IMG/VR virus record: IMGVR_UViG_3300033489_000005
Location: 1 to 64,000 of that record
Direction: 5' to 3' (one strand)
DNA: 64,000 nucleotides
Origin: a virus
In this document: piece after piece, positions 1,978 through 55,175 of the stretch
Layout: each line of letters starts with the position of its first letter
Numbering within the stretch: position 1 is the stretch's first letter
Notes under the pieces: generated by a model
The model's input: only the letters and a program-made list of their open reading frames with translations
Database searches by the model: none
Told to the model about the DNA's origin: nothing
Translations under genes and position numbers: made by a program

Positions 1978-2688
1978 ATGTCTTTTACCTATTCAACGTT
2001 TTTGACCGCGCTTGCTCAAGAAATCGCGATCACTACGACAAATCCTGACTTTCAGGCTATACTTCCGACGTTTATCCAGAACGCGGAGTTGAGGATTTTT
2101 CGTGACCTCGACCTATTGTCGACTGTTTTTCGTGACGCCGCGCTTACCCCGGCGCACAACCAGCGCTCACAGACGCTGCCGCAGACCTACGGGCAGTTTG
2201 TGGTGGTTGAGGGGGTCAACTTCATGAATCAGACAGTGCGTTTAAACGCTCTCACCCCCTGTTCGCGTGAGTTCATTGACGGACTGTTCCCAACCGAGAC
2301 CGCCCCGGCGTCGACCTCATCGCCCCGGTTTTTCGCCCGAGACACGGACCAAACGATTCTGGTGGCCCCCTCATTGGGGAACGGATACGCCACACCCAGT
2401 CTCGAAGTCGTGGGGACCGTGCGCCCCAATCCGCTCAGCGCGACCACGACCACGACGTTCATTTCGCAGAATCTGCCGGACCTGCTGCTCTATGCGGCCA
2501 TGGTTGAGGCGACGGGGTGGATGAAAAACTATGGCGCGCAGGCTGAAGACCCGAAGATGGGGATGAGCTGGGAGTCCCGGTATCAGGGCGCGCTCAGCCC
2601 GGCGCTGTCCGAAGAGACGCGGAAAAAATTCCAATCAGGCTCATGGTCCGCGAAGTCCAGGCCGATGAGCCAGCCGGAAAGGGTGTGA
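1978..2688 (+). CDS. virion structural protein, possibly tail tubular/adaptor protein (T7 gp11-like position)
   Basis: 236-aa ORF immediately upstream of a 686-aa ORF and the internal-virion-protein block. The assignment rests on size and order only. Confidence 0.4.
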   Translation: MSFTYSTFLTALAQEIAITTTNPDFQAILPTFIQNAELRIFRDLDLLSTVFRDAALTPAHNQRSQTLPQTYGQFVVVEGVNFMNQTVRLNALTPCSREFIDGLFPTETAPASTSSPRFFARDTDQTILVAPSLGNGYATPSLEVVGTVRPNPLSATTTTTFISQNLPDLLLYAAMVEATGWMKNYGAQAEDPKMGMSWESRYQGALSPALSEETRKKFQSGSWSAKSRPMSQPERV

Positions 2689-2689
2689 T

Positions 2690-4750
2690 ATGGGCGTCTC
2701 CACCGTCACCCTCAGACCAGGGCTCAATGTCGAGATTACGCCGACCCAGAACCAGGGCGGCTATACCGTAACCCAGCTCGGCCGCTACAAGGCCGGGCTG
2801 TTTCAGAAAATGGGCGGCTGGGCGAAGTTTTTTCCCGTGAAGGTCGACGGGGTTTCTAAGGTCTCTCATACATGGCGCGACCTTGCCGGGAACAATCATT
2901 TATCCATCGGCACGACAGCCGACTTGGATGTAATCACCAATGGCGTTTATCGAGATGTATGTCCGCAAACCCTAACGACGAACCCAGCTGTCAATTTTGC
3001 AACGACGATAAACACAAATATCGTCACTATTACTGACACTGCAGTCAATAATATCACCAATTATGATGCAGTATTCTTGAATACGCCTATATCTGTTGGC
3101 GGTCTGAATCTATCTGGGTTATATCAGGTTGCGGCCAATATCTCGCCTACATCCTACCAGATTTATGCTTCGTCGCTGGCGACCGCGACCGTCGTTGCGC
3201 CCGGCGGCGCTGCGCCAGCGTTCACAACCGTATCCGGCTCGGCGCTGGTCACCGTCACCTTCGCCAACCACGGCCTGCAGGCGGCCTATGATATCGTGTT
3301 CCCCATCGCTACCACCACGGGCGGCGTCACGATTCTTGGCCGGTACGAGGTGGTCAGCATCATAGACGCCAACAACTTTATCATCAGCGCCACGAACGCG
3401 GCGTCATCGGCGGCCGGGCCAACGCCCATGAACGGCGGGCTGGCGCAATTCCTATACTACATCGCCATCGGCCCCCAGGCGCTCGCCGGAGCATACGGAG
3501 CCGGGCCGTATGGCGCCGGGCCATACGGCATCGGGACGCCGATTACTGGCCAGACAGGAACCGATATCCAGGCTGTCGACTGGTCCTTGGACCACTGGGG
3601 CGAGCTGCTGATGAGCTGCCCCAAGAACGGCCCTATCTTCTATTGGGGGCCGTCATCCGGGTTCGTGAACAGCTCTGTGGTTCCGGCCGGGCCGCCGATT
3701 AACACCGGCATGTTCGTGAGCACCAACAATCAGTTCGTCATCGCATACGGCTCGACGTCGTATGCGTCCATCGGCGTGTATCAGGACCCGCTGCTCATCC
3801 GGTGGTGCGACGCCAACAACTTTTTCAACTGGCAGCTGTCAGCGGTCACCCAGGCGGGCAGCTGGCGCCTGTCATCCGGCTCCCAAATCATGGGCGGCGC
3901 GTCGACGCAGCTGCGGAATCTAGTCTGGACCGATAAAGATCTCTGGGTGAGTTCCTACATCGGCTCGACCCTGGTGTTCAATATGGTCAAGACGGCCGAG
4001 GGGGCCGGGATGATTGCCCAACACGCGTGGGGCAAGCTGGGGGACACCGTCTACTGGATGGGGCAGAAAAATATCTGGGCGTACGACAACAGTGGCCCGC
4101 GCATCGTGCCGTGCCCGGTGTGGGACGCCATTTTTCAGGATATGGACCCGAACCACATGGATAAATGCTTTGTTGGCGTCAATAAAGCATTTAGCGAGAT
4201 TATGTTTTTCTGGCCTTCTGAGTCCGGCGCCCTTGGTTATTGTGACAAGATGGCCAAGATGAACATCGAAGAGGGGGCGTGGGACCTCTCTAGCATTCAG
4301 AGAAACACATGGACAGATGTTGATACATTCAACTATCCCATAGCAACTACAAATGATGGGCTAATTTATTCCCATGAATACGGATATGATGCTGATGGGA
4401 ACGTCCTGAACCCCTATTTTGAAACAGGCTATTTCTACATCAGCGACGGAGAAGACAAAGTTTTCGTCGACCGAATCTATCCTGACTTCAAGTGGGGTGA
4501 ATATAACGGCACCCAGAACGCCAATATGCTGATTACAATCAAGGCTATTGACGAAATGGGGCAGATAACGCCAGATGTCTATGGCCCGTTTCTGGTCACC
4601 AACACCTCGCGGTGGATTGAGCCACGGCTGCGCGGGCGGATGATTTCCATCCGCATCGAGAGCCAGGACGCCGGGTCATTCTGGCGGCTCGGCGCGGTGC
4701 GCTTCAGATGGTGCCCGGATGGCCGGGCTGGAGGGTTGAACAATGGTTGA
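2690..4750 (+). CDS. large virion structural protein, possibly tail tubular/nozzle protein (T7 gp12-like position)
   Basis: 686-aa ORF starting 2 nt after the previous stop. The assignment rests on position and size. It contains lower-GC patches (about 2880-3130 and 4150-4560). Confidence 0.4.
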   Translation: MGVSTVTLRPGLNVEITPTQNQGGYTVTQLGRYKAGLFQKMGGWAKFFPVKVDGVSKVSHTWRDLAGNNHLSIGTTADLDVITNGVYRDVCPQTLTTNPAVNFATTINTNIVTITDTAVNNITNYDAVFLNTPISVGGLNLSGLYQVAANISPTSYQIYASSLATATVVAPGGAAPAFTTVSGSALVTVTFANHGLQAAYDIVFPIATTTGGVTILGRYEVVSIIDANNFIISATNAASSAAGPTPMNGGLAQFLYYIAIGPQALAGAYGAGPYGAGPYGIGTPITGQTGTDIQAVDWSLDHWGELLMSCPKNGPIFYWGPSSGFVNSSVVPAGPPINTGMFVSTNNQFVIAYGSTSYASIGVYQDPLLIRWCDANNFFNWQLSAVTQAGSWRLSSGSQIMGGASTQLRNLVWTDKDLWVSSYIGSTLVFNMVKTAEGAGMIAQHAWGKLGDTVYWMGQKNIWAYDNSGPRIVPCPVWDAIFQDMDPNHMDKCFVGVNKAFSEIMFFWPSESGALGYCDKMAKMNIEEGAWDLSSIQRNTWTDVDTFNYPIATTNDGLIYSHEYGYDADGNVLNPYFETGYFYISDGEDKVFVDRIYPDFKWGEYNGTQNANMLITIKAIDEMGQITPDVYGPFLVTNTSRWIEPRLRGRMISIRIESQDAGSFWRLGAVRFRWCPDGRAGGLNNG

Positions 4751-5123: not shown

Positions 5124-5870
5124 ATGCCGTTAGCAAAGGGCAAAAGCGCCAAAACCGTGAGTAAAAACATAGTTGAGATGGTCCGCTCGGGGCATCCGAG
5201 GAACCAAAGCATTGCTGCGGCGCTCGACACCGCGCGCCGGTCTAGCAAAGCCATGGGCGGCCCAATCAAGAAAATGCCCGGTATGCCCAACATGCCGGGA
5301 ATAACCAAGCCTGAAGAAGACCAGGGCCAGAACAAGGGGCGCGGCGGCCCGACCGTGAACCCCCCGGCAGTCGCCCATGTCCCGTGGCGAGTGAAACCCA
5401 TGATAGCCGCGCCGACCAAGGTTGTGCCCCCGGTCAAGATCGTGACGGGCGCTCTTACCGGCCCGACGTCGGGCCGGGCCGACAAGTTGCCGATGAGCGT
5501 TCTCAACGGCTCTCATGTGCTCCCGGCCGACACGGTCGCGGCGCTCGGCGACGGGAATTCGATGTCCGGGCACCACGTCTTGAAAAGCATGTTCCCGCGC
5601 TCATCCGCCACGGCGAGCGGGTCTTTGGGCGGAGGCTCGAAGGCGGGGCATCCGTTCGGCCCCAGGGGACGGCGGTTTGCCTCCGGCGGGGCGCCAGAGA
5701 CCGTTCCCGTGAATGTCAGCGATGGCGAGTTCATAATCCATCCAGAAGACGTTCTCAAAATCGGAAAAGGGGACGCCAAGCGCGGCCATGAGATTCTTGA
5801 CAAGTTTATTCTACATGTCAGGAGTCACTATCAAAAGAAACTCAAAAATCTGCCGGGACCAAGTAAATGA
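5124..5870 (+). CDS. hypothetical internal virion protein
   Basis: 248-aa ORF with a basic N-terminus (KGKSAKTVSKNIVEM...QSIAAAL) and a Pro/Gly-rich middle. Confidence 0.6.
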   Translation: MPLAKGKSAKTVSKNIVEMVRSGHPRNQSIAAALDTARRSSKAMGGPIKKMPGMPNMPGITKPEEDQGQNKGRGGPTVNPPAVAHVPWRVKPMIAAPTKVVPPVKIVTGALTGPTSGRADKLPMSVLNGSHVLPADTVAALGDGNSMSGHHVLKSMFPRSSATASGSLGGGSKAGHPFGPRGRRFASGGAPETVPVNVSDGEFIIHPEDVLKIGKGDAKRGHEILDKFILHVRSHYQKKLKNLPGPSK

Positions 5871-6349
5871 ATAAAAGCAATGTCCAGCCATTGCCCCACG
5901 TAAGAGTAGCAGTCGCAGGTGATTTTAATGACCTAATCAGAATGGGACACGAGGTTTTTGCCGAAAACGGGCTTATGACGCTCAATGAAGACATGATTCG
6001 TACGGGGGCTCTGAGAGCTATTGAAGGCGTTGATTCTGTTGTAGGATGTATTGGCCCTGTTGGCGCGCTTGAGGCGGCAATTCACCTGTCTATGCGTCAT
6101 TTCTGGTACACTGAGCAGGCGCATCTTGAGGAGCTATGGGCGTTCGTCCGGCCTGAATTCAGGAAAACGAGGAACGCACAGGCTCTTATTGAGTTTGCTA
6201 AGAATTTAGCGGTGGAGTTAAAGAGACCTCTGTTAATAGGTGTTCTGTCATCGCATAGAACCGAAGCTAAAGTTAAGATGTATCGACGTAAATTGGGGGC
6301 TCCATCGGGGGCGTACTTCCTCTATAATGCTAAAACAGGGGTTGGATGA
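5867..6349 (+). CDS. hypothetical protein, possible GNAT-fold acetyltransferase
   Basis: 160-aa low-GC ORF with an ATGA overlap. VRPEFRKTRNAQALIEFAKNLA resembles GNAT motif A, but the match is weak. Confidence 0.4.
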   Translation: MNKSNVQPLPHVRVAVAGDFNDLIRMGHEVFAENGLMTLNEDMIRTGALRAIEGVDSVVGCIGPVGALEAAIHLSMRHFWYTEQAHLEELWAFVRPEFRKTRNAQALIEFAKNLAVELKRPLLIGVLSSHRTEAKVKMYRRKLGAPSGAYFLYNAKTGVG

Positions 6350-9300
6350 TGGGCGGCGGCTCTCAGAATCAGGACACTAGCCAGACGTACACGCCGAACG
6401 CTGAAGCCATGAGCGCGTTCAGGGGCGTCATGAGCGGCGCGCAGGGCGTCGCCAACCGGAACCAGACCTGGAATCCGGCCATGGCGCAGCGCGTCGCCGG
6501 TCAGAACGCCATGCAAACGCAGGGGTATTCCGGCATTCAGGGCCAGCTGGGGCAGTACTCGCCCCAGGTTAACGAGGCCCTTGGAATGACCAGCGCCGCC
6601 GGTCAGAACATCACCGGCGAGGACATTTCCCGTTATCAGAACCCCTACACCCAACAGGTCATAAACGCCACGATGGCCAACGCCCAGCAGCAGCAGGGCG
6701 CAGGCATGGCGAACGTGGTAGGCAACCAGATTGCTCAGAACGCCCAAGGCGGCGACCGGGCGATGCTGCAGAAGGCGCTCACTCAGGGCCAGTACGCCAT
6801 GGCCAACAACCAGACAATCGCCGGGCTGGAGCAGCAGGGCTACAACACCGCGCTCGCCACCGCGCAGGGGGAGAAAGGGCGCCAGCTGCAGGCGGGCATG
6901 GGCCTCATGAGCGAGGCTGGCGCGGCGCAGAATTACAATCTGCAGGGCCTCGGCGCGATGATAGGCGCGGGCGGAGCACAGCAGGGGCAGCAGCAGAACG
7001 AATACAACGCCGCGACCCAGAACGCGACCAGTCAGACCATGTGGCCGATGCAGCTTCAGCAGTGGCTCGCGGGCATTACCGGCTCGATGGGTTCGCTGAT
7101 GGGCGGCACCACCACCGGCACGTCGCAGACAACTGAGCACCCAGGCTTCTACAACTATCTCGGCGCGGGCATGGGCGGCCTGTCGGCGATGTCCGACGAG
7201 CGCGTAAAAGAGAATAAGCGCGAAGTTGGCGAGCTGTTCGACGGTCAGAAGGTTTATGCGTTCAACTATAAGGGCCACCCCACGACCCAACTCGGGTTGA
7301 TGGCGCAGGAAGTTGAGCGCCGTCATCCGGAGTCCGTTGGCCAGACCGAGGACGGCGTAAAAACCGTTCAATACGACATGGCCACCGACCGCGCGGCCAA
7401 GCGCGGCAACTTCGCCGATGGCGGGGCGCCGGGGTTCGGCGGCTCGAACCCATGGGATACGGCGAGCAGCCCGTGGGGCTCGCTTATCCAGAGCGCGCCG
7501 CAGATTCATTCAGGCGGGTTCAACCCGCCGGTCGCCGCCGGTACGGCCCCCGCGCCCATGTCTTCAAAAGATAAGGAACAGCGCGAGCAGGCCCAACAGG
7601 GCAAGCAGGGCGGCCAGGGCATGAAGGATATCTACAACAAATACCTCAACAAAGAGGGAACGGGAACGCCCGGCAGTACGGGAACGCCTTCCACAGCCAA
7701 CGGATGGGAGGCAAAAACCGTGCCTTCCAGCGAACTTGGCGGCTCGACGGATTTGACGGTGACCACCCCCGTTGAGACGGTGAGCGAAAGCACGTCTGGC
7801 CTTGGGAGCATGGGCGCAAGCGCCCCCGCGAGCGCGGCCCCATCGAGCATGATGGGCGCGGCCCCGGCGGGCGCAGGCGCAGCGGCTCCAATAGGAGAGG
7901 CTGCAACCGGGTTCGGCGGCGCGGCTACTGGGGCTGGAGGCGCGAGTCTCGCCAGCACTGGTTCTCTTGGCGCGGCTCTGTCGGCTGGGATGGGCGGCGC
8001 GGGCGCAGCCGGAGCTGCTGGAGCTGGCGCGGCGGGAGCCGGAGCCGCTGGCGCGGCGGGAGCCGGAGCCGCTGGCGCAGGCGCGGCCGGAGCTGCCGGA
8101 GCGGGCGCGGCCGGAGCTGCAGGGGCAGGCACGGCTGCAGCCGGTTCAGCTGCGGCTGCGGGCGCGGCTGGCGCGGGCGGCGCGGCCGGAGGCGGCCTCG
8201 GGGCGCTGATTGGCGCGCTCTTTTCAGACGAGCGCATGAAAGAGAACAAGCGCGTCGTGGGCCGCACGTTCGACGGTCAGAACATCTATGCCTACAACTA
8301 CAAGGGCCATCCCATGACCCAGCTCGGGTTGATGGCGCAGGAAGTGGAGAAGCGTCACCCCGGCTCCGTGGGCGAGCACGGCGGCATGAAGACGGTTCAA
8401 TATGACCGGGCGATTCAGGCGGCGTCCAGGCGCGGCCACTTCGCCAACGGCGGCGACGCGTCCAGCAACGATGATATGCGCCGCCATGCGGAGCGCATGC
8501 TGCATCTGGCGTCCGGCGGCGCGGCGCAGAACTTCGCCGATGGCGGCGAGCCGTTCATCAATCCTGACGAATTTACCTTTGACGCGCCGGAGCCCTATGA
8601 GCCCACAAAACGTGATTATGGCCATTTCGATCCATATGGCGGCGTCTCCGCTAGCGGGAATATAGAGAATATGATTCCCGGCGGGTTTTCAGCAAAACGG
8701 GCATACCGGAGGGAGCAGGCAGACAACGCCTATAATCTGAAAAACCCGGAAGACAGCCAAAAAGACACGACTGAAACACCGCTGGATACGCCAGATATTC
8801 GTGATGGCATGTGGCGCAGTCCGCACGAACAGCGCACGCATTTTGACCCGTACATGGGCAAATTCCCTGTCATGGAGCCCATCGTTCCGCATGAGCAGGT
8901 GAAAACCATGGTCCGCGCGCCAGAGGTTCCTGAACCAGGGGAGCCAAAAGGCCGGGCGCTTCCTGACTATGCGCCAAAACTCTCGCATGAGATGTTATCG
9001 GACCGGCCGCTGACTTCCGCGCCCGTGGCGACCGCGCTTGCGGAAGCGAAGATGGCGCGCAACCAGGGGCTCGACCAGCCTCCGGAGACCATGGCGCGCG
9101 GCCGGTTACCGGCTGAAGGGGCCGGGCAGCGCCCATCGTTCGAAATTCCCAAGTTCCCGGCTGGCGTCGACGTGGCGGACGTCGGCCGCGCCGCGATAAA
9201 CAAAATCACCGACCCCTATGCGGAGGCCCTGCGCGAAAGAGTATCGGATGCTGGCGGCCTGTATGCGCAGGCCGGGAGAGAGGCTCGCGGTCTTGCGCCT

Positions 9301-12168
9301 AATCTGCGCCTCCCCACGCGCGCCGATGTCACGGAGCTTATGCGCTCGGCGCGCGGCGCTGGCGAGATGGCGGCCGATTATGCTTCGCCAGGCTCCCGGA
9401 TGGAGCGCGCGCAGGCCGCAGACGCCGCAGGCGAGTTCAAATGGAACCCGGCTTCCGGCCGCTCGGAATTTATCTCGGGCGAGCAGCTGGCGCGCGAGCA
9501 GGCGGCGAAAGGAACGCCGCGCCTCGATGCAGAGCGCGGGCAAAGCATCCAGCCGGGAACGCCTTTTGAGGGCGGCCCGCCGCTCCCAGAACGCAGGCCT
9601 GCGACTCCGGCCGCCGCCGAACCCGTTCCGCCCATGCCGGAGCGCAATATTGTCGAGCAGTCCAGGCTTGAGGCGGAGCGCGCCCTTGAGGATGAAAAGC
9701 GCGCCAAGCTTCTGCGCTACTTTGAGGCCGCTCAGGATGCAGTGCGTTTAAACGCTCCCGCTGCTGGCGGCGTGACGCCGGAGGCCGCCGCAGAGCGCGG
9801 ACACGCTGACCGCGCGGCCATCATGGACACGCTGAAGCAGTATTTCCCCCATACGCTCGGCGGCGAACCGATTACGCCCGCCGCGCCAGCTGCAGCGCCC
9901 GCAGAAGCGCCGCGCCAGCATGGGCCGGAGGCGTATCCTAAGGAACTCGGGCTCGGCGACGTCGCGCCAACCAAAGTCCATTCTCAGGAACTCACTGATT
10001 TAGAAAAGGACCTGCAGACAAAAGTCGAGCCTTACTCGGCGGCTGTCGGCGCGCCCAAGGCGCAGACTTTCCAGGAACAGCAGCCGGACCGGTACGCGGC
10101 GGGGGCTCAAACCTCCATGACCAAACGGCTTAAGTTTGAGAACGACTTGGGCGGCGTGACGCGGGACACCGGCGGCAACCCATCCATGGGCAATTACGGC
10201 ATCCTCGCCCGCAAGGGCGGCGCGTCTTCAGGAAGCGACTTTTACGACAACTACGGCGAAAAGCTCGGGTTCACCCATGACCCGCGCCATGACCCGTGGG
10301 GGTTCGCCGCCGATTGGAAGCGCGTCGCCAAGGACAACCCGCAAGGGCTGGAGGCCGCAGAGGACGCGTGGCACAACAAGTTCATCAAAGGCTCCGTGCG
10401 CGCCCACGTTCTGAACGCAAATCTCCCCGGAACGCTCGCCGATGACCCGCGCGTGCAGGAGTACTTTCAGGACCGGTACGTGCAGCACGGCACCGGCATC
10501 AGCAAGGACCCGAACGGCCGCAACGGCGCGGGCCGTCTGAAGCAGGCTTGGGCGAAGGCCGAGGGCGATATCCCGACTTTCTTGAAAGAAATGTCGGCCA
10601 TCGACAAGGCCCATATCCGCCACGACTTTGAGACGTATCTGAGCGAGCATCCCGACCACCAGCCGGGCCTTGAAAAGCGCATCAGCAACCGGCTCGCCGG
10701 GGCGCTTGGCGAAAAGGTTCAGCCGGGCGGAACTTCGGAGCAGGTCACCCAGGCGGCTTCCGATAAGAAGGAGACTGCCGCGAACACGCCGAAGTCGGCG
10801 GCCGAGCTGCTCCCGCACGAGCAGGACCAAGTCGGGTTCATCAAGAAAATCATGGGCGGTTGGAACCCGCTCGAAGGCGTCACCGGCCCTGGAAAAGAGG
10901 GAAAAGACAGTTGGAACCCCCTCGGGCTGACGTCGGACCAGCGCCGCAACCTTATGATGACCGGCCTGCAGATGGCGGGCGGCTCGCCGCTGGGCATGCG
11001 GGCGCTCGCGGGCGGCGCGTCCGGCATGCAGGCCGCGCAGCAGATGCAGATGAACGAGCAGAGCATGGGCATCCAGCGCGCTAAGCTGGCGCTTGACGCC
11101 ATGAACCAGCCGAAGTTCTCGCCGGTTCACTGGACCGACTTCATGGGTATGCAGCACGCGGGCTCGATGGACGTGCACAGTGGCGCGATAACCGAGGCCG
11201 GGCAGACTGCGCCCGTGCCAGCAGGCAGCATTGCGCCGGGGACCGTGCAGGCGGCGCCCGAGGCCGGGGGAGCCGGAGCGCCAGGGGCAGGCGCGGCCGA
11301 CCAGCCAACCGGCAACGCTCAGATAGACCAGATGTTCAAGCAGTATCCGGAGGCTCGCGGCACTGTAGAGGGCCTGCTTGACGGCCGGTTCACGCTTCAG
11401 CAAATCCCGACCCGCCAGCGCGCCGGAATGGAAATGGCGGCGAACGCCGTGGCCAGGACGCGCGGCGAGGTCTACGACCCCGTTAAAATTCAGAAGCAGA
11501 GCGACTTTGAGAAGGACTTTTTAAAGCCCGACTCCAAGACCGCAATCCAGGTCGAGAGCCTGAACCGCGCCAGCGAACATATCGGCACCATGATGGGTCT
11601 GAGCGAGCAGCTTGGCGCAAACACCGGGCTCGGCGACTACCTGTCCGGCAAGGCGGCCGACAACATCACCATGATGCGCGACCCCAAGCGCGAACAGTAC
11701 CGGGTTATGGGTCGCGCCATCGCTTCCGAGCTGGCTAAACTGGAGTCCGGCGGCAAGGGCGCGCAGAAGACAACCGAAGAGTGGGAGTCCATGTTCGACC
11801 CGAGCTTGCCGAAGGCGGTCCGGGACGGCAACATCATGCAGGCCTTCAATATCATGAAGGGCAACATGAAAGGGCTCGACCAGAAGTGGATTAACGGCGC
11901 CCGCAGAGGGAAAAACGGACCGACAATCGACTATATGGCCCCTGAAGTGCGGCAGAACATGCACACCGCGCAGCTCAGATATGAGCAGGCGACCGGCCGC
12001 ACGCCGGAAGGGACTAAGTCAACGGTCGAGAGGCCCCCGGCTCCCATTCCTGAAATCCGGGAACAGCTTGGCCGCGCTCTGAAAAAAGCGGATACGCCGG
12101 AGAAAAAGGCGGCTATCCTTGAGCGCGCTAAGAAGTGGGGCGTTTACGGACTGGAGACTCAGCAGTGA
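6346..12168 (+). CDS. giant (1940 aa) internal-virion/ejection-type polyprotein with two peptidase-S74-like intramolecular chaperone domains
   Basis: Uninterrupted ORF. Two homologous segments, SDERVKENKREVGELFDGQKVYAFNYKGHPTTQLGLMAQEVERRHPESV (7192..7425) and SDERMKENKRVVGRTFDGQNIYAYNYKGHPMTQLGLMAQEVEKRHPGSV (8224..8454), match the S74 pattern SDxRxKxN...GxxAQEVexxxPexV. Confidence 0.7.
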   Translation: MMGGGSQNQDTSQTYTPNAEAMSAFRGVMSGAQGVANRNQTWNPAMAQRVAGQNAMQTQGYSGIQGQLGQYSPQVNEALGMTSAAGQNITGEDISRYQNPYTQQVINATMANAQQQQGAGMANVVGNQIAQNAQGGDRAMLQKALTQGQYAMANNQTIAGLEQQGYNTALATAQGEKGRQLQAGMGLMSEAGAAQNYNLQGLGAMIGAGGAQQGQQQNEYNAATQNATSQTMWPMQLQQWLAGITGSMGSLMGGTTTGTSQTTEHPGFYNYLGAGMGGLSAMSDERVKENKREVGELFDGQKVYAFNYKGHPTTQLGLMAQEVERRHPESVGQTEDGVKTVQYDMATDRAAKRGNFADGGAPGFGGSNPWDTASSPWGSLIQSAPQIHSGGFNPPVAAGTAPAPMSSKDKEQREQAQQGKQGGQGMKDIYNKYLNKEGTGTPGSTGTPSTANGWEAKTVPSSELGGSTDLTVTTPVETVSESTSGLGSMGASAPASAAPSSMMGAAPAGAGAAAPIGEAATGFGGAATGAGGASLASTGSLGAALSAGMGGAGAAGAAGAGAAGAGAAGAAGAGAAGAGAAGAAGAGAAGAAGAGTAAAGSAAAAGAAGAGGAAGGGLGALIGALFSDERMKENKRVVGRTFDGQNIYAYNYKGHPMTQLGLMAQEVEKRHPGSVGEHGGMKTVQYDRAIQAASRRGHFANGGDASSNDDMRRHAERMLHLASGGAAQNFADGGEPFINPDEFTFDAPEPYEPTKRDYGHFDPYGGVSASGNIENMIPGGFSAKRAYRREQADNAYNLKNPEDSQKDTTETPLDTPDIRDGMWRSPHEQRTHFDPYMGKFPVMEPIVPHEQVKTMVRAPEVPEPGEPKGRALPDYAPKLSHEMLSDRPLTSAPVATALAEAKMARNQGLDQPPETMARGRLPAEGAGQRPSFEIPKFPAGVDVADVGRAAINKITDPYAEALRERVSDAGGLYAQAGREARGLAPNLRLPTRADVTELMRSARGAGEMAADYASPGSRMERAQAADAAGEFKWNPASGRSEFISGEQLAREQAAKGTPRLDAERGQSIQPGTPFEGGPPLPERRPATPAAAEPVPPMPERNIVEQSRLEAERALEDEKRAKLLRYFEAAQDAVRLNAPAAGGVTPEAAAERGHADRAAIMDTLKQYFPHTLGGEPITPAAPAAAPAEAPRQHGPEAYPKELGLGDVAPTKVHSQELTDLEKDLQTKVEPYSAAVGAPKAQTFQEQQPDRYAAGAQTSMTKRLKFENDLGGVTRDTGGNPSMGNYGILARKGGASSGSDFYDNYGEKLGFTHDPRHDPWGFAADWKRVAKDNPQGLEAAEDAWHNKFIKGSVRAHVLNANLPGTLADDPRVQEYFQDRYVQHGTGISKDPNGRNGAGRLKQAWAKAEGDIPTFLKEMSAIDKAHIRHDFETYLSEHPDHQPGLEKRISNRLAGALGEKVQPGGTSEQVTQAASDKKETAANTPKSAAELLPHEQDQVGFIKKIMGGWNPLEGVTGPGKEGKDSWNPLGLTSDQRRNLMMTGLQMAGGSPLGMRALAGGASGMQAAQQMQMNEQSMGIQRAKLALDAMNQPKFSPVHWTDFMGMQHAGSMDVHSGAITEAGQTAPVPAGSIAPGTVQAAPEAGGAGAPGAGAADQPTGNAQIDQMFKQYPEARGTVEGLLDGRFTLQQIPTRQRAGMEMAANAVARTRGEVYDPVKIQKQSDFEKDFLKPDSKTAIQVESLNRASEHIGTMMGLSEQLGANTGLGDYLSGKAADNITMMRDPKREQYRVMGRAIASELAKLESGGKGAQKTTEEWESMFDPSLPKAVRDGNIMQAFNIMKGNMKGLDQKWINGARRGKNGPTIDYMAPEVRQNMHTAQLRYEQATGRTPEGTKSTVERPPAPIPEIREQLGRALKKADTPEKKAAILERAKKWGVYGLETQQ
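7987..8190 (+). repeat. Ala/Gly low-complexity coding repeat (GAAGAAGAGAAGAG...)
   Basis: Reiterated gccggagc(c/t)gc(t/c)gg units at the DNA level. They encode about 68 aa of (A/G)n between the two S74-like domains. Confidence 0.85.
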
Positions 12169-13982
12169 GCGGCACCGAGCTATTTGACGATATCCTGAAC
12201 GCTCCCTCGCATGCGCCCGTAAGAACGGCGGATGCGGGGCCGTCCAACACGCCTCTGTTTGACGACGTTCTTCAGAACGCGCCGCGAGGCGAGCAGAACC
12301 CGTCCATCCGGCGGCCGGTAGAGCGTGCATCGGAGACCGCGCCCGAGCCAGGGTTCGGGTCTTCAAAAATCGGCCGGTTCGCCCTCGGCGCAGCTGAGCC
12401 GGTTGTCGGCGCCGCACAGATGGTTTCCCATCTTATGCCGTTCGGCGGCGAGACCATGGATTCAGCCGCGGGGGCGTTTAAACGCTACCAAGAGGACCGC
12501 CGCCGGGCGGCGGGCATCGAGCCGGGCGGCTGGGATGTGCCCGGCCTTATCGGCAACATCGCGGCGACGGCCATGCCGTTGGCGCGCGCCGCCTCGATGG
12601 CGTCCAAGGCCCCATCGTATCTCGGCATGATGGGCCGGGGCGCGGCGGCCGGAGCCGCCGGAGCCGCTGCAGAGCCGATTGCAGACACGTCTGAAGGGTA
12701 TTGGGGCCAGAAGGCCGGGAACGTCGCCCTTGGCGCAGGCCTCGGCGCGGGCGCTGGCGTCCTCGGCGAGACGGCCGCCCGCGTCGCGCTGCCGGTTATC
12801 GATGAAAAGGCGCGCTGGCTCGCCGAGCGAGGCGTGCGCACCACCATCGGCCAGACCATCGGCGGCTGGGCGAAACGAGCTGAAAACGTCGCCGAGTCTC
12901 TTCCATTCGTTGGCGAGAGTATCCGCCAGAAGCGCGAACAGGCGATGCATGACGCATGGCGCGGCATGGGCAAGGAGACAGCCGGGCTCGTCGGCGAGAC
13001 TATTCCCGAAGATATGCCGACCGAAGATATCCTGAAGCACCTTGGCGGCATGGGGGCGGACGCCAACGCGGCGGCCGGGCAAACCCCAGGCGGCATACTT
13101 GGTCAGAAATTCGATGAGGCCTATCAGAACGCCGCCCTGCTGCCGCAAGGGCCGTCTGGCGTTGGGAACCGAACGTTCGCACGGCTGAAGACCAATATGA
13201 AGGCGCAGGCCCGGCGCGCGCTTACCGAGTCTGAATTCGAAGCGTTCGAAAAGAAGATGAATACGCACGTTGACGACGTCATTAAAAAGGCGGCGCACCC
13301 TTCAAGAGGCGGCAGAGGCGCGCCCATCGCCGGTAAAGACCTTCAGCAGATGATTTCTGACCTAAAAGGGTTAGAAACTGAGGCTTATAACGCTGGTTCG
13401 ACAACTGAGCGCAATCTTGCGCCGTGGTATACAAAGTACCGCGAAGCTATCGAGACGGCCGCCGATACGAATACGCCGGGTTTTATACAGAAACTTGAGG
13501 CCGCAAGCGACGCGTGGAGCAATTTCACGCGCATGCAGAAGGCGGCCGGGACCTCGGCGGCTATCGGCCATGATAATATCCCGACCATGACGCAATTCGC
13601 GTCGGCTGTCGCGCACCTGGACCCGTCGACCCGGAACCGGCTGACAAGCACCGGCCGCTCGCCGCTGCAGGAGTGGCCGGAACACGGCAAGGCGGTGTTG
13701 CCCGCCAAAGTCTCCGACTCCGGCACGCCGGAGCGCGGGTTCTGGGGAGGCCTCGGCGCGGCGGTGGCGACCGGCACCCTGCCACATGTCGCCATTCCCG
13801 CTATCGCGGCGACCGGCATAGGGATTCCAACGCTCTACACGAACACGGGTCAGAATCTTGCCCGGCGGTATCTGCTCTCGCGCACCGCGCCACAGCGGGC
13901 CATCGCCGGGACAATCAGAAATGCAACTCCATGGGGGAGCCTCTACGCCGGTCACGAAGTCGCCGACAGAGAACAGCCATAA
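12135..13982 (+). CDS. internal virion protein (hypothetical)
   Basis: 615-aa ORF. The true start may be GTG at 12165, overlapping the upstream TGA as GTGA. It has Ala/Gly-rich hydrophobic stretches. Confidence 0.65.
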   Translation: MGRLRTGDSAVSGTELFDDILNAPSHAPVRTADAGPSNTPLFDDVLQNAPRGEQNPSIRRPVERASETAPEPGFGSSKIGRFALGAAEPVVGAAQMVSHLMPFGGETMDSAAGAFKRYQEDRRRAAGIEPGGWDVPGLIGNIAATAMPLARAASMASKAPSYLGMMGRGAAAGAAGAAAEPIADTSEGYWGQKAGNVALGAGLGAGAGVLGETAARVALPVIDEKARWLAERGVRTTIGQTIGGWAKRAENVAESLPFVGESIRQKREQAMHDAWRGMGKETAGLVGETIPEDMPTEDILKHLGGMGADANAAAGQTPGGILGQKFDEAYQNAALLPQGPSGVGNRTFARLKTNMKAQARRALTESEFEAFEKKMNTHVDDVIKKAAHPSRGGRGAPIAGKDLQQMISDLKGLETEAYNAGSTTERNLAPWYTKYREAIETAADTNTPGFIQKLEAASDAWSNFTRMQKAAGTSAAIGHDNIPTMTQFASAVAHLDPSTRNRLTSTGRSPLQEWPEHGKAVLPAKVSDSGTPERGFWGGLGAAVATGTLPHVAIPAIAATGIGIPTLYTNTGQNLARRYLLSRTAPQRAIAGTIRNATPWGSLYAGHEVADREQP

Positions 13983-13994
13983 GGAACGGGCGTC

Positions 13995-14810
13995 ATGCCA
14001 GCAACAGTTTATAAGGGATACAGCGTCCCGACGCCGGGCACCGAGAGCGGTACATGGGGCGCAGACCTGAACGCCAACACTTTCGCCGTAATTGACTCCA
14101 ATCTCGGCGGCATTGTGACGAAAACTCTCAGCAACGCGCCCGTCACGCTTTCGGCGGCCGAGAGCCAGAACCTTATCTTGAGGCTGACCGGCACGCTAAC
14201 CAGCGCGGTTCAGGTCACCACCGCGTGCCAGGGGTTGACGATTATCGAGAACGCCACGACCGGCGCGTTCAACGTGACGCTGGCGAACGGCTTCGGGACG
14301 CCTGTTTTCTGTAAACAGGGGTATCAGACGCTTGTCGTGTTCGATACGACCAACGGCCCGCGCGTCGTGTCGGACTCGACAATATGGGGTCTGGCGACTG
14401 CTGGGGCGGTTATCCGGAGCGCGGCGGGCGTTATCAGCACCGACTCGTGTGTGGCCTCGGCGCAGTTTCAGCGCGATAACGGCGGCGCGGCGCTGACAAC
14501 CGGCATCCAGGGCGATATCCTGATTCCTTTCGCCGGGACAATCACGGGGGCGACCCTGCTTGCCGACGTCTCCGGCTCCATGATTGTTGACCTATGGAAA
14601 GCGCCGTATGCGTCATTCCCGCCAACCGTCGCCAACACCATAGTTTCACTGACCCCGCCGACTCTCGCGACGGCTAACAAATATCAGGATACGACGTTAA
14701 CCGGCTGGACAACGGCGATTGCTGCAAACGACGTTATTAGGGTTAATATTAACAGTGTAACGACTATAAGCCGCTTCGTTATCGCGCTTTCAATCGCGAG
14801 ATACACATGA
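13995..14810 (+). CDS. tail fibre / receptor-binding-type protein
   Basis: 271-aa ORF. The N-terminus YSVPTPGTESGTWGADLNANTFAVIDSNLG resembles the conserved N-terminal motif of phage tail fibres. It sits next to the Gly-rich fibre paralogue. Confidence 0.5.
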   Translation: MPATVYKGYSVPTPGTESGTWGADLNANTFAVIDSNLGGIVTKTLSNAPVTLSAAESQNLILRLTGTLTSAVQVTTACQGLTIIENATTGAFNVTLANGFGTPVFCKQGYQTLVVFDTTNGPRVVSDSTIWGLATAGAVIRSAAGVISTDSCVASAQFQRDNGGAALTTGIQGDILIPFAGTITGATLLADVSGSMIVDLWKAPYASFPPTVANTIVSLTPPTLATANKYQDTTLTGWTTAIAANDVIRVNINSVTTISRFVIALSIARYT

Positions 14811-15622
14811 CGATTATAAATCTGTTCTACACTTTTGGTTCAGGAACTGTCCCGACCCCTAGCGGTTGGAACCCAACCGATAACTCGTGCAAATGCTGGG
14901 GCGCTGGCGGAGGCGGAGGGGGCGGCGGCTCCGATAACAATAACCATGGCGTGTCCGGAGGCGGAGGCGGAGGGGGCGGCTTCTCTTCGGCCGCCAACGT
15001 CACGCTGCCGTTCGGCGGCTCGACCGCCTATAGCGTCGCCTCCGGAGGAGCGGGAGGCAGCCACTACACGACCGGAACCGCTGGAGGCCAGACTACGTTC
15101 GGGGCTATTCTGCTGGCGAACGGCGGCAACGGCGGCGGGGGCGGCGTTGGCGGTGGAGGCGGGGGCGGCCTTGGGGGGTCAACGACTGGCGCTATCGGGG
15201 ACGTCAAATATGGAGGCGGCCGAGGCGCGTCTGGCGGTCTGTCGCCAAACTCGGGCGGCGGAGGCGGCGGCGCTGGCGGTCCGGCTGGCGTAGGAGGGAC
15301 GGCTACAGCTGGCTCCGCGTCGGCGGGCGCGGCGGGCGGCTTTGGCTCCGGCGGCGCGGGCGGGACCGGCGGCACAGCGGGCACAGGCGGAACCGGGACC
15401 GAAGTTGACGCCACGCACGGGTCAGGCGGAGGCGGCGGCGGACGGTATTATGCGAACTCGGGCGCAGGCGGCACAGGCGGCGCTTATGGCGGCGGCGGCG
15501 GCGGTTCGGGCGGCTATGATAACGGCGGCTACGGCGGGCCGGGCGGCGTGGGCGGCCATGGCCTCCTTGCTCTCACATATACGAGAGTCATCCCAAATAT
15601 TATAACGATGATCATCTGCTAA
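14807..15622 (+). CDS. glycine-rich tail-associated protein (paralogue of 2..1237 C-terminal domain)
   Basis: Shares VDATHGSGGGGGG...GLLALTYT and overall poly-Gly architecture with the first ORF. ATGA overlap with the upstream gene. Confidence 0.7.
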   Translation: MTIINLFYTFGSGTVPTPSGWNPTDNSCKCWGAGGGGGGGGSDNNNHGVSGGGGGGGGFSSAANVTLPFGGSTAYSVASGGAGGSHYTTGTAGGQTTFGAILLANGGNGGGGGVGGGGGGGLGGSTTGAIGDVKYGGGRGASGGLSPNSGGGGGGAGGPAGVGGTATAGSASAGAAGGFGSGGAGGTGGTAGTGGTGTEVDATHGSGGGGGGRYYANSGAGGTGGAYGGGGGGSGGYDNGGYGGPGGVGGHGLLALTYTRVIPNIITMIIC

Positions 15623-49579: not shown

Positions 49580-50228
49580 GGGCGAGCCACACGGGCAGGT
49601 CAACCCGAAGACGGGGCTTGTCCCCCGTCAGGAGTTGTTTTGTCAGTATATCGTCGCTGGGATGACCCTGGCCGAGGCCACCAAGCTTGCCGGTTACCAG
49701 ATAACGTCCGCCGCGACCACCAAGCGCGACATAGACCAGTATTGGTCAGAACGAGGCGCTAAAATACGGAAAGCTCCGCTCGTTCAGGCGCGCATCGGCG
49801 TGTTGATGGCTGAACAAGCGGAAGTGCTGGCCAAGCAGCGCAATCAGCTGTCTGATAAATTTCAGATGAACATCGAGCGCTTGACGGAGATGCTTCTTCA
49901 GGACAGGCATTTCGCCCGAACTGGCCGTCTGTCCATGGAGGAGAACGCCGAGGTTCAGCCGGACCATCGGCCGGACGCCCGCGCCGCCGTGCAGGCCTCC
50001 ATGGGGCTCGCCAAGCTGCACGGCCTCTTAATCGACAAGTCGGAAATCACCGTCCAGGGTTCGATTACCCGGATGTCGAATGAGGAGCTTTTGCGGTTCA
50101 TCGACACTGTGCATAAGGAAATCGGCCCCATGATTGAGGTAGAGGCCCTGGAGATTCCGGACTCCCCCCGACAGCGGCGTCTACCGGCTAAGAAGGGGCA
50201 TGTGGTTCTGGATTTAGACAATGACTGA
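49566..50228 (+). CDS. terS: terminase small subunit
   Basis: LVPRQELFCQYIVAGMTLAEATKLAGYQ... fits the HTH N-terminus typical of TerS, and the gene is immediately upstream of TerL. Confidence 0.7.
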   Translation: MAARKGEPHGQVNPKTGLVPRQELFCQYIVAGMTLAEATKLAGYQITSAATTKRDIDQYWSERGAKIRKAPLVQARIGVLMAEQAEVLAKQRNQLSDKFQMNIERLTEMLLQDRHFARTGRLSMEENAEVQPDHRPDARAAVQASMGLAKLHGLLIDKSEITVQGSITRMSNEELLRFIDTVHKEIGPMIEVEALEIPDSPRQRRLPAKKGHVVLDLDND

Positions 50229-53016: not shown

Positions 53017-55175
53017 CGGAGCAAATTATGCTAAATACGGCTCAAGTCTTTGACTTTCAGAAATATATTGACGAACAGCCGTCATTTGAGCCGCAGGGCG
53101 TTCGGTTTTCAGAAAGTAATGACGCTCTGGTTATTGATGAGCCGGACGGCGGCGTCACTATCGAGTTCAACCCGCGAAATCATAACGTCAAGGCTGGGCG
53201 CGCGGACCACAACGCGAATCTGGCGGAGTTCATTGATGAGGGCGACCTCAACGCCCTGGCTGTTGACCTGATTGAGGGCATCGAGGAAGACCGCCGGAGC
53301 TTTTCGGAGTGGCTGCAGACGCGGGCGAACGGGGTCAAGCTGCTTGGGTTCAAGGTCGAGGAGCCGCGCAGTGACTTGGCGTCCACGTCCGCCCCCCTTG
53401 AGGGCATGTCGACAGTTCGGCATCCGCTGCTCGGCGAGGCGTGCCTGCACTTTCAGGGAAACGCCCGTCGTGAGATGATTCCGAGCAATGGACCGGCGAA
53501 AATCGCCGTTTATGGCGGCCAGACCGCCGTGAAAGACTGGCTGGCGGAGAAATTAGAGTCAGAAATCAACTGGTATCTGACCAAAAAGGCCACTGAATTC
53601 ACCCCTGGCACCGACCGTCTCCTGTTCATGGTGGGGTTCTCGGGCATGGCGTTCAAAAAGGTGTATTTTTGCCCGATGCGGCGCCGCCCGGTCTCCGAGA
53701 TGGTGGACGCCGAGCACTTCGTGGTGGCCAACACCACCACAGACATTCAGACCACGCCGCGCGTGACCCACATCATCCCCATGCAGCAGACGACGTTTAA
53801 ACGCATGCAGTTGCTGGGGGTCTACCGGGACATTCCCATCCAGCGGCCGGACGCCAACATCAACGCCTTTGACGCCGCCGTGGCGCGCTCCCAGGGCATC
53901 AGCCTCAATGTGACCCGTCCAGAAGACCAAGTGCACACGATCTACGAATGTTATGCCGATGTCGACCTCCCCGAGTTTGAGCACCATCTTGATGGAGAGC
54001 CCACAGGCCTTCCGCTCCCTTATCGAATCACCATTGACCTCACGTCACGAGCAATTCTGGAAATCAGAAGGGATTGGGACGAAGGCGACGAGGATTTCAT
54101 CCGGAGACGCACTTTCGTTCCCTTTGGCTTCGCCCCAACCTTCGGGTTCTACTGCACTGGTCTCCTTCAGATACTCGGTAACGCGACGTCTGCCCTGACC
54201 GGCGCATGGCGCCTGCTGCTCGACGCCGGGATGTTCAGCAACTTCCCCGGCTTCCTCTACGCCAAGAACGGCGCGAAGCAGAGCAACAACACGTTTCGCG
54301 TCCCGCCCGGCGGCGGCGCGCCCGTCGACGTGCCCGGCGGCGTCAAGCTGGCCGACGCCATCATGCCGTTGCCGTATAAGGAGCCGTCGCAGACCCTTAT
54401 CGCCTTGACCCAGACCATCGGCGCGGCCGGGCAGAAACTTGGCGGGACAGCCGAGCTGCCGACCGCCGAGGGCAAGGCTGACGTGCCCGTTGGCACGATG
54501 CTCGCCGCCATTGAGCAGGCCGGGAAAATCCTGAACGCGGTGCATACGCGGCTTCATGACGCGCAGACAGTTGAGCTGGAATTGATTCTGGAGCACCTGC
54601 GCCAGCATCCCGAGGCCCTGTACCGGCCCGACCCGGACCAGCCGCTCTGGACCCTGGACATGGTCAGGCAGGCCCTGGCCAACTACAATCTCGTGCCCCG
54701 GTCCGACCCGAACACCCCGAGCCATGCGCACCGGCTGATGAAGGCCATCGCCCTTGGGACAGTGGCGCAGCAGACGCCGCCCGGCGTGTTCGACCCGAAG
54801 AAGATTGCGACGCGCGTGCTGCACATGATGCAGATTGATGACGTTGACGACCTGTTTATGCCGCCGCCGCCCCCTGGCGCCGCGCCGCCGCCCAACCCGG
54901 AGCAGATTAAGGCGCAGTCGGCCATGCAGACGAACCAGGCTAAGCTGGCGACCGCCGCGCAGACCAGCCAGACCAAGATGGCGGATATCCAGGCCCGCGT
55001 GCAGGTCGAGATGGCCAAGATGGACCATGAGAAACAGCTTGAATATATGCGCCTGATGCAGCATTTGGTAACGCATCCCCTTGCCGCGCACATCTTTGGT
55101 TTGGGGGGAGAAACAGGGGGTCAGGGGCAGGTTCCAGCCATGCCCGGAGGTTATGACCCGTTAGCCCAACAGTGA
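53013..55175 (+). CDS. portal protein
   Basis: 720-aa ORF directly after TerL (GTG at 53013 overlapping the TerL stop; alternative ATG at 53028). The assignment rests on size and position. Confidence 0.65.
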   Translation: MTEQIMLNTAQVFDFQKYIDEQPSFEPQGVRFSESNDALVIDEPDGGVTIEFNPRNHNVKAGRADHNANLAEFIDEGDLNALAVDLIEGIEEDRRSFSEWLQTRANGVKLLGFKVEEPRSDLASTSAPLEGMSTVRHPLLGEACLHFQGNARREMIPSNGPAKIAVYGGQTAVKDWLAEKLESEINWYLTKKATEFTPGTDRLLFMVGFSGMAFKKVYFCPMRRRPVSEMVDAEHFVVANTTTDIQTTPRVTHIIPMQQTTFKRMQLLGVYRDIPIQRPDANINAFDAAVARSQGISLNVTRPEDQVHTIYECYADVDLPEFEHHLDGEPTGLPLPYRITIDLTSRAILEIRRDWDEGDEDFIRRRTFVPFGFAPTFGFYCTGLLQILGNATSALTGAWRLLLDAGMFSNFPGFLYAKNGAKQSNNTFRVPPGGGAPVDVPGGVKLADAIMPLPYKEPSQTLIALTQTIGAAGQKLGGTAELPTAEGKADVPVGTMLAAIEQAGKILNAVHTRLHDAQTVELELILEHLRQHPEALYRPDPDQPLWTLDMVRQALANYNLVPRSDPNTPSHAHRLMKAIALGTVAQQTPPGVFDPKKIATRVLHMMQIDDVDDLFMPPPPPGAAPPPNPEQIKAQSAMQTNQAKLATAAQTSQTKMADIQARVQVEMAKMDHEKQLEYMRLMQHLVTHPLAAHIFGLGGETGGQGQVPAMPGGYDPLAQQ

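Follow-up and report, generated by a model that had tools for sequence, protein, structure and literature searches.

S74-type domains, also called intramolecular chaperone auto-processing (ICA) domains, are an established family of self-cleaving domains. Those described in phages (K1F endoNF, T5 pb1, GA-1 gp12 and the S16 long tail fibre) sit in receptor-binding fibres, where the ICA follows a triple beta-helix. The closest functional analogue of the arrangement described here is eukaryotic, with the ICA lying inside a long protein in both MYRF and Dictyostelium MrfA; the internal MYRF domain cleaves, stays on the C-terminal product and releases the N-terminal product (PMC3742440, PMC3828593, PMC8326128). 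Here we describe a 1940-aa open reading frame (ORF; positions 6346-12168, plus strand) encoding a putative ejection (internal virion) polyprotein with two internal S74 copies, at which it probably cleaves itself into three fragments. The ORF lies in a 64,000-nucleotide window, positions 1 to 64,000 of the IMG/VR record IMGVR_UViG_3300033489_000005, which is most of the ~70-kb podovirus-type genome of an uncultured phage.

An earlier sequence-only reading of this DNA had placed two S74-type domains at 7192-7425 and 8224-8454, and the same bounds are given by our own hidden Markov model (HMM), which was seeded with both segments and iterated on homologues. Copy 1 spans aa 283-360 (nt 7192-7425, plus strand), with a predicted scissile bond between M282 and S283 and a Ser-Lys dyad of S283 and K288; copy 2 spans aa 627-703 (nt 8224-8454, plus strand), with a predicted scissile bond between F626 and S627 and a dyad of S627 and K632. 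A search with the PF13884 (Peptidase_S74) HMM had been suggested as a check, and each copy passes the gathering cutoff of 22 bits alone (copy 1, 31.0 bits, E 3e-7; copy 2, 28.4 bits, E 2e-6), the whole 1940-aa protein giving E 1.4e-11. The peptides quoted in the sequence-only reading are correct, and its account of the surrounding segments agrees with our measurements: aa 1-282 are rich in Q, N and G (16% Q, 16% G, 14% A, 8% N), an Ala/Gly low-complexity segment (46% A and 36% G over aa 521-626) lies ahead of copy 2, and 1237 aa, estimated there as about 1240, lie past it.

The catalytic signature of the family is present in both copies. Ser and Lys(+5) form an indispensable dyad (S587/K592 in MyRF, S911/K916 in endoNF), and the cut is made just before the Ser (PMC8326128). 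Across 147 domains from 107 homologues, the Ser is conserved in 146, Asp(+1) in 146, Arg(+3) in 142 and Lys(+5) in all 147, and the residue preceding the Ser is F, L or M in 126. The phage ICA proteins named above belong to the same Pfam family as the window domains and have S-D-x-R-x-K, including the Ser and Lys(+5), in common with them. A profile of the domain matches the solved structures 3GUD (the GA-1 neck-appendage chaperone domain), 7DC3 (the MyRF ICA), 6F45 (the S16 long tail fibre) and 8HQZ (T5 pb1) at E 0.007-0.12; S-D-x-R-x-K is in register in the 3GUD, 7DC3 and 6F45 alignments, and residue 1 of the 3GUD chain is the Ser of SDERHK. Compared with BFVD, an AlphaFold2 monomer model of copy 1 (pLDDT 83) has 24 matches at E<=1e-3 (TMq 0.63-0.93), annotated as ICA, endosialidase chaperone or tail fibre, followed by neck appendage and Peptidase S74 proteins at E 0.0015-0.01. 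With the motif, PF13884, the solved-structure profiles and the BFVD fold matches all in agreement with the original assignment, both segments very probably belong to the S74/ICA family.

The two copies are paralogues, as had been proposed, with 55 of 77 aa (71%) and 176 of 231 nt (76%) identical. Identity is 82-84% at codon positions 1 and 2 and 62% at position 3, from which we conclude that both copies are old and under purifying selection, and not a fresh duplication. Independent JGI and ENA contigs of 70.3-70.4 kb encode an identical protein (P0001), and in the orthologues P0002 and P0003 the two copies are arranged in the same way. We also considered a recent intragenic duplication, which is ruled out because each copy is nearest to its own counterpart in the orthologues (92% and 88% for copy 1; 86% and 83% for copy 2). 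Among the three orthologues, both S74 copies align without gaps at 83-93% identity, and the linkers at 52-78% with insertions and deletions.

Comparison with relatives bears on what these domains do: the modules are found either as separate genes, the first of which is S74-terminated, or as one ORF with S74 at the junctions. In every deposited phage matched, S74 ends a 300-370-aa protein and the next gene starts at once. Brucella Tb encodes the S74-terminated gp23 (L003 6254-7240), then gp24 and then gp25 (a peptidoglycan hydrolase); in Sulfitobacter pCB2047-C, SUBG_00009 is followed by an 'endolysin', and in Bradyrhizobium ppBeUSDA76-2, WAX24423 is followed by 496-aa and 561-aa proteins. Pseudomonas PAE2 has gp13 (L008 5317-6228), then gp14 and then gp15, and EBPR podovirus 2 has gp27, then gp28 (a peptidoglycan hydrolase). 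Among known systems, the nearest relatives are S74-terminated proteins of this kind, namely Tb gp23, those of pCB2047-A/C, phiGT1 IVP-B (IVP, internal virion protein), PAE2 gp13 and EBPR podovirus 2 gp27. These cultured-phage proteins carry the same domain subfamily, with 41-54% identity over the S74 segment, and like the window protein they follow an acetyltransferase gene and have a hydrophobic Gly/Ala/Leu tail before the Ser. Whereas S74 ends the protein in the split forms, as it does in phage endosialidases, tailspikes, fibres and neck appendages, and the next ejection genes are separate, in the window the modules are fused and S74 is internal, twice.

PAE2 is P22-like: its coat protein is of the P22 type and its tail accessory factor of the gp4 type. 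The gp13 of this phage consists of a phrog_598 'DNA ejection' module (E 6e-30) and a C-terminal S74, and lies between the P22-type tail genes and two larger downstream genes; taking the P22 order to be genes 7, 20 and 16, gp13 would stand at the gene 7 position. We note that the S74-terminated proteins in the ejection blocks of cultured phages (PAE2, Tb) are labelled only 'chaperone of endosialidase' or 'virion structural protein'.

Split forms are also found in metagenomes. A query with module 1 (aa 1-282) plus S74 alone retrieved 27 short homologues of 230-622 aa, and S74 lies 0-4 residues from the C-terminus in 16 of the 26 that bear the domain. The metagenomic relatives L004 and L005 have an S74-terminated gene and then the next gene, with SU10-adaptor synteny as in the window; the contigs of the closest short homologues, P0123 and P0124, end directly past the gene and are uninformative on the downstream gene. 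The clearest example is locus L012, where the gene for a 332-aa Q/N-rich S74-terminated protein is followed, ten bases on, by that for P0113 (1073 aa; homology to window aa 1267-1455, E 5e-24); past P0113 lies the gene for a 590-aa homologue of the product of the window's next ORF. The downstream genes of cultured phages likewise correspond to parts of fused proteins: EBPR2 gp28 and the pCB2047-C 'endolysin' match the fused P0092 right past its second S74 (E 1e-45 and 1e-48, respectively), and four fused proteins have C-terminal parts that match the downstream gene of the Bradyrhizobium phage. When compared by BLASTP with Brucella Tb gp23, gp25 and gp26, the window modules show no similarity outside S74, so the link to Tb is one of synteny only. 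The sequence-only reading had predicted a self-processing polyprotein, and this appears to be the best reading of the sequence comparisons, since the gene boundary of the relatives falls right past the C-terminal S74.

The fused architecture is not peculiar to this window. A search of 5.8 billion proteins gave 151 homologues, of which 120, all longer than 1000 aa, are listed; at least one internal S74 is present in 107 of these 120 and two copies in 40, and every S74-bearing listed homologue has hundreds of residues downstream of the domain. A profile search of 1.84 billion cluster representatives (50%-identity clusters) gave 18,678 S74-like representatives at E<=1e-3 and 269 at E<=1e-30. At least two matched S74 stretches occur in 143 of the best 150 representatives, nearly all of them ~1000-2300 aa long, which shows the architecture to be genuine and frequent among uncultured phages. 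One protein, P0148 (1794 aa), has three matched S74 stretches, and the separator can thus occur at least three times per protein. The use of the domain had been called unusual in the sequence-only reading, which is fair for cultured phages, none of which has it, but not for metagenomes, where it is common; an internal ICA also has a precedent in eukaryotic MYRF. In a full-text literature search we found no paper that relates S74/ICA domains to phage polyproteins or to proteins of the ejection or internal virion class, and the phiGT1 and SU10 papers are silent on S74 in ejection proteins. What is new here is where a known self-cleaving domain sits, how many copies there are and which class of protein hosts it; the arrangement is apparently widespread.

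Alongside the observed domain identity, dyad conservation, genomic context and equivalence of split and fused forms, we infer the occurrence and timing of cleavage and the roles of the fragments, and consider it fairly probable, from sequence and modelled structure, that the 1940-aa ORF self-cleaves into three fragments. The ORF would join in one frame the internal virion proteins for which related podoviruses have two or three neighbouring genes, with the two truncated S74-type domains acting as built-in separators. The 204-kDa precursor would be translated, the S74 modules would probably oligomerise, and each dyad would then cut before its own Ser. The predicted products are fragment A (aa 1-282, 29.3 kDa), a helical protein of the gp7/IVP-B position; fragment B (aa 283-626, 32.0 kDa), comprising S74-1, a linker and the Ala/Gly hydrophobic tail; and fragment C (aa 627-1940, 142.4 kDa), in which S74-2 is followed by a candidate GH108-like muralytic region and, at the C-terminal end, a conserved part. 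Each S74 would be retained at the N-terminus of the downstream fragment, as the ICA is in MYRF.

A plausible consequence of cleavage concerns the segments just ahead of the cuts. In all split and fused forms, a hydrophobic Gly/Ala/Leu-rich tail precedes the Ser, as in GLGLYALL/SD, GGLFSL/SD and SMLPF/SD among the split forms, and GMGGLSAM/SD (copy 1) and GALIGALF/SD (copy 2) in the window. Each cut would expose a hydrophobic C-terminus resembling the membrane-embedded C-terminal arms of P22 gp7. This P22 protein is N-terminally processed, and we take it to be 229 aa long, which would make F229 its last residue. As gp7* it forms a dodecamer of helical hairpins, with hydrophobic C-terminal arms embedded in the outer membrane and listed membrane residues extending to F229 (bioRxiv 10.64898/2026.09.03.749273). 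A more speculative proposal, which we advance with considerable doubt, is that the S74 domains are removable caps or aids to assembly, and licences for gene fusion, in membrane-inserting ejection proteins. The domain would keep the hydrophobic tail of the preceding module soluble and oligomerisation-competent, and its self-removal would expose a gp7-like C-terminus for membrane insertion. Because the cut would be autonomous, neighbouring ejection genes could fuse without loss of function, and fused ejection polyproteins would guarantee a 1:1:1 stoichiometry. In the strongest version of this proposal, the uncut chain would be threaded through the tail in a fixed order and cleaved only on refolding in the periplasm.

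Several observations weigh against self-cleavage into ejection proteins. First, the domain is ~60-77 aa long versus ~110-150 aa in the solved ICAs, which extend some 50-60 residues further. The minimal stand-alone domains, of ~60 aa, stop right past the VDY motif, and AlphaFold2 gives copy 1 only a 15-residue terminal helix (H61-75), then a Gly-rich linker. Cleavage of MyRF requires trimerisation, and it is a long coiled coil at the C-terminal end that drives the latter (PMC8326128). The copy 1 model has no such long coiled coil, and no upstream trimeric beta-helix or fibre stalk is predicted for either copy: unlike fibre ICAs, the window domains follow helical or low-complexity hydrophobic segments, and the model of module 1 has a disordered hydrophobic Gly/Ala-rich tail and no triple beta-helix. 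We call the domain truncated ICA-type, not canonical, because it lacks these two hallmarks, the long coiled coil and the trimeric stalk, and because its position differs; the missing coiled coil means that cleavage competence is presumed rather than assured. The same features separate the window protein from its analogue MYRF, which has one ICA, an upstream beta-helical stalk and a long C-terminal coiled coil, whereas the window protein has two ICAs, no stalk and a truncated C-terminus; MYRF is moreover a membrane-tethered transcription factor, and its biological context is unrelated.

Second, the structure prediction suggested by the sequence-only reading gave a divided answer for copy 1, with ICA matches in BFVD but none among solved PDB chains, where the best Foldseek match of the monomer model has E 1.3. 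In our view the monomer model is a poor Foldseek probe, because solved ICAs are intertwined trimers. Third, homology of the window modules to P22 or T7 ejection proteins was not detected. Neither phmmer of the whole protein nor a module 1 profile has any match among PDB sequences (0 matches each), and Foldseek of the low-confidence module 1 model against the PDB is not significant (best E 0.55); T7 chain 8e4g_a (probability 0.54, E 2.9) is a weak lead only. The equivalence to P22 and T7 ejection proteins rests on synteny and PHROG labels.

Finally, 12 of the 120 listed long homologues (P0011, P0035, P0078, P0088, P0089, P0101, P0104, P0109, P0110, P0115, P0117 and P0118) fuse module 1 to the downstream part without a detectable S74, and S74 cleavage is therefore not obligatory in the family; either the uncleaved fusion works or another protease cuts. 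The P0011 junction, ...GMGGMS/RGGKVKRRHFADGG..., corresponds to that of the window except that the S74 cassette is cleanly missing, so that S74 behaves as an insertable and deletable cassette.

These considerations also bear on the oligomeric state of the products. The sequence-only reading had expected trimeric N-terminal fragments, and this part of its interpretation is not supported: module 1 is predicted to be all-alpha without a triple beta-helix, the ICA is truncated, and P22 gp7*, its counterpart by position, is a dodecamer. The S74 assignment and ejection type of the sequence-only reading are supported, and self-processing is the best reading. Any S74 trimer is likely transient.

A first alternative is that the S74 copies are non-cleaving folding or oligomerisation modules, and that the intact 1940-aa protein acts as one giant ejection protein. 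The S74-less fusions, with the P0011 junction as an example, suggest that an uncut fusion may be viable, and the domain lacks both the long C-terminal coiled coil that MyRF needs for trimerisation-dependent cleavage and a predicted upstream beta-helix. Nonetheless, the near-absolute conservation of the Ser, Lys(+5), Asp(+1) and Arg(+3) across divergent domains makes a non-catalytic role hard to defend, and the gene boundary coincides with the end of S74 in the split relatives. We regard this alternative as unlikely.

A second alternative assigns the cleavage to a different enzyme, such as a prohead protease that acts at a recurrent F-A-D-G-G linker motif, and leaves S74 only the role of a chaperone. 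The motif, expressed as [FYHMLW][AYS]xGG, occurs 304 times in the 120 listed homologues versus 63 expected by shuffling (~5-fold enrichment), mostly as R-G-H/G-F-A-D-G-G; it follows 94 of the 147 S74 domains, is found 175 times elsewhere, and is present at the junction of the S74-less fusions. In the 1940-aa ORF, an FADGG closes S74-1 (nt 7411-7425), and FANGG (nt 8440-8454), LASGG (nt 8506-8520) and a further FADGG (nt 8533-8547) follow, all on the plus strand; the motif also appears within the 248-aa ORF at 5124-5870 (RRFASGG). Possible roles are those of linker, docking motif and protease site. However, the parts scanned yielded no protease gene near the structural module, no phage protease is known to be associated with the motif, and cleavage by another enzyme leaves the conservation of the Ser-Lys dyad unexplained. 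We therefore consider a separate protease improbable, and self-cleavage by S74 remains our preferred reading.

The context of the 1940-aa protein is likely that of an internal virion protein of the ejection type. This agrees with the sequence-only reading and is backed by synteny, a PHROG match and the content of the family. The ORF occupies the internal virion (ejection) protein position, with the adaptor, nozzle and IVP-A-like genes ahead of it and the fibre genes behind. The tail adaptor gene (SU10_adaptor; 1978-2688, plus strand) is followed by a gene for a 686-aa nozzle-like protein (2690-4750, plus strand; the matches for this pair of genes are PF24175, 76.8 bits, and phrog_3287, E 1.9e-54), a 125-aa ORF, a 248-aa ORF (5124-5870), and a 160-aa GNAT-like gene (5867-6349, plus strand; phrog_1249 acetyltransferase, E 1e-4), the stop of which overlaps the start of the 1940-aa ORF. 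Then come a 605-aa gene (12165-13982, plus strand; 615 aa from a GTG at 12135, in the gene call of L014) and fibre-like ORFs (13995-15622), past which lies a gene for a protein with a peptidoglycan-binding domain. The GNAT slot is that of the acyl-CoA N-acyltransferase genes in Tb and pCB2047-C, and in phiGT1 the gene at the acetyltransferase position is IVP-A, corresponding to P22 gene 14, and the following genes are IVP-B and IVP-D (PMC10386132).

The gene order from adaptor to ejection genes is shared with Tb, pCB2047-C, PAE2, L004, L005 and L012, and the position past the adaptor, nozzle and IVP-A-like genes is shared with P22 gp7-gp20-gp16, T7 gp14-gp15-gp16 and SU10 gp20-24. These model podoviruses differ in having separate ejection genes without S74. 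A megablast of the first 20 kb of the window against deposited phages found no match. The 605-aa gene is a further ejection-protein candidate, as judged from its product's homology to the 590-aa protein of L012 (E 5.5e-32), which matches phrog_26400 'DNA ejection protein' (E 3.7e-14).

The modules of the 1940-aa protein fit this context to differing degrees. Module 1 (nt 6346-7191, plus strand) is the ejection module of the gp7/IVP-B position and corresponds to predicted fragment A; its AlphaFold2 model is all-helical and of low confidence (pLDDT 61, with aa 227-282 below 50). A Q/N-rich helical first module with a hydrophobic C-terminal tail is common to podovirus ejection proteins and the window protein. 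The family phrog_4287, which carries the annotation label 'DNA ejection protein', spans aa 1-344 (E 2.3e-28, profile 1-384 of 392), and phrog_6121 'virion structural protein' spans aa 581-693 (E 3.9e-32, profile 278-391 of 392). At S74, each alignment runs to the C-terminal end of its profile, so both families appear to be S74-terminated; stand-alone module 1 homologues of 318-435 aa also end in S74.

Module 2 (aa 361-626, nt 7426-8223, plus strand) is an S/T/P/G linker followed by the Ala/Gly-rich hydrophobic segment at aa 521-626, which ends in GLGALIGALF; the highest hydropathy window is aa 608-626. The DNA coding for this segment contains imperfect tandem repeats at nt 7994-8143 (periods 24-54, 70-85% matches), and the segment is indel-prone among orthologues (73-76% identity with gaps), which suggests repeat-driven length variation.

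Module 3 (aa 704-1940, nt 8455-12165, plus strand) is collinear with P0004 at aa 1227-1887 and has P0113 as a stand-alone homologue. Pfam searches at E<=10 on five sub-segments of the 1940-aa protein found nothing besides S74, and no hydrolase in particular. An hhalign comparison of the orthologue alignment with the GH108 of P0019, however, gives a probability of 68% (E 4.9e-5) at aa ~1257-1358 (nt 10114-10419, plus strand), and the same comparison with five other hydrolase types gave no score. This region has the pattern F-E-x-x-x-G...D-x-x-G-x-P-S-M...Y-G-I, sits in the slot occupied by a GH24 lysozyme in P0007, and is more conserved among the three orthologues (93-95%) than any other part; we consider it a possible divergent muralytic domain. 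Many homologues carry a cell-wall hydrolase of varying type (GH24, SLT, Hydrolase_2, GH108, Phage_lysozyme2 and VanY), and in each of the six scanned it comes after the last S74. The large podovirus ejection protein is characterised by a swappable muralytic domain, for example the SU10 gp20 transglycosylase (PMC9509320). Such a domain in the largest module is shared by T7 gp16 (SLT), SU10 gp20 and many window homologues.

One might instead place the protein outside the virion, as a tail fibre or tail-tip protein, the kind in which S74 usually occurs. There are weak matches to tail-fibre PHROGs (phrog_25848, E 0.008), and relatives carry source names such as 'tail fiber domain-containing protein'. 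However, these PHROG matches are confined to the S74 segment, the gene sits between the nozzle and GNAT genes and a 'DNA ejection protein' homologue, and separate fibre-like genes follow at 13995-15622. The Q/N-rich, all-alpha module 1 matches 'DNA ejection' PHROGs, and the family carries muralytic domains, as T7 gp16 and SU10 gp20 do; a fibre is thus very improbable. The joining of separate genes through an assembly or frameshift error is effectively refuted by the identical protein on two independent contigs, the two-copy layout of P0002 and P0003, and the same architecture in more than 140 cluster representatives.

If the ORF is indeed a self-cleaving ejection polyprotein, the finding bears on how podovirus ejectosomes are built. 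It would provide a processing mechanism for the very large 'internal virion protein' ORFs of metagenomes, a second phage role for S74/ICA outside receptor-binding fibres, and a prokaryotic-virus counterpart of the internal ICA of MYRF; the proteins Tb gp23, those of Sulfitobacter pCB2047 and PAE2 gp13 would be expected to lose their last ~60 residues. The minimal self-cleaving module of ~60 aa might also serve as a protein-engineering tag. For annotation, we note that some family members bear automatic database labels ('Intramolecular chaperone auto-processing domain containing protein' or 'tail fiber domain-containing protein'), and that a tail-fibre label prompted by a PF13884 match can be wrong when the protein is an ejection protein.

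Elsewhere, the window encodes DNA polymerase A, a primase-polymerase/D5 protein and a SNF2 helicase, together with an unusually long large terminase of 931 aa (50221-53016) and an SU10-type portal (53013-55175). The terminase has Terminase_6C at aa 768-892 and a sub-threshold Intein_splicing match at aa 205-553 (21 bits versus a cutoff of 35.8), and may contain an intein, to judge from that match. Within the ejection-gene block, the N-terminal 44 aa of the 248-aa ORF match phrog_2423, a PHROG without a function label. The C-terminal 'VSDGEFIIHPEDVLKIG' of this ORF resembles the post-S74 tails of the short homologues P0131 and P0141 ('GEFVVPKDVMSW...'), and may be a small module common to the block.

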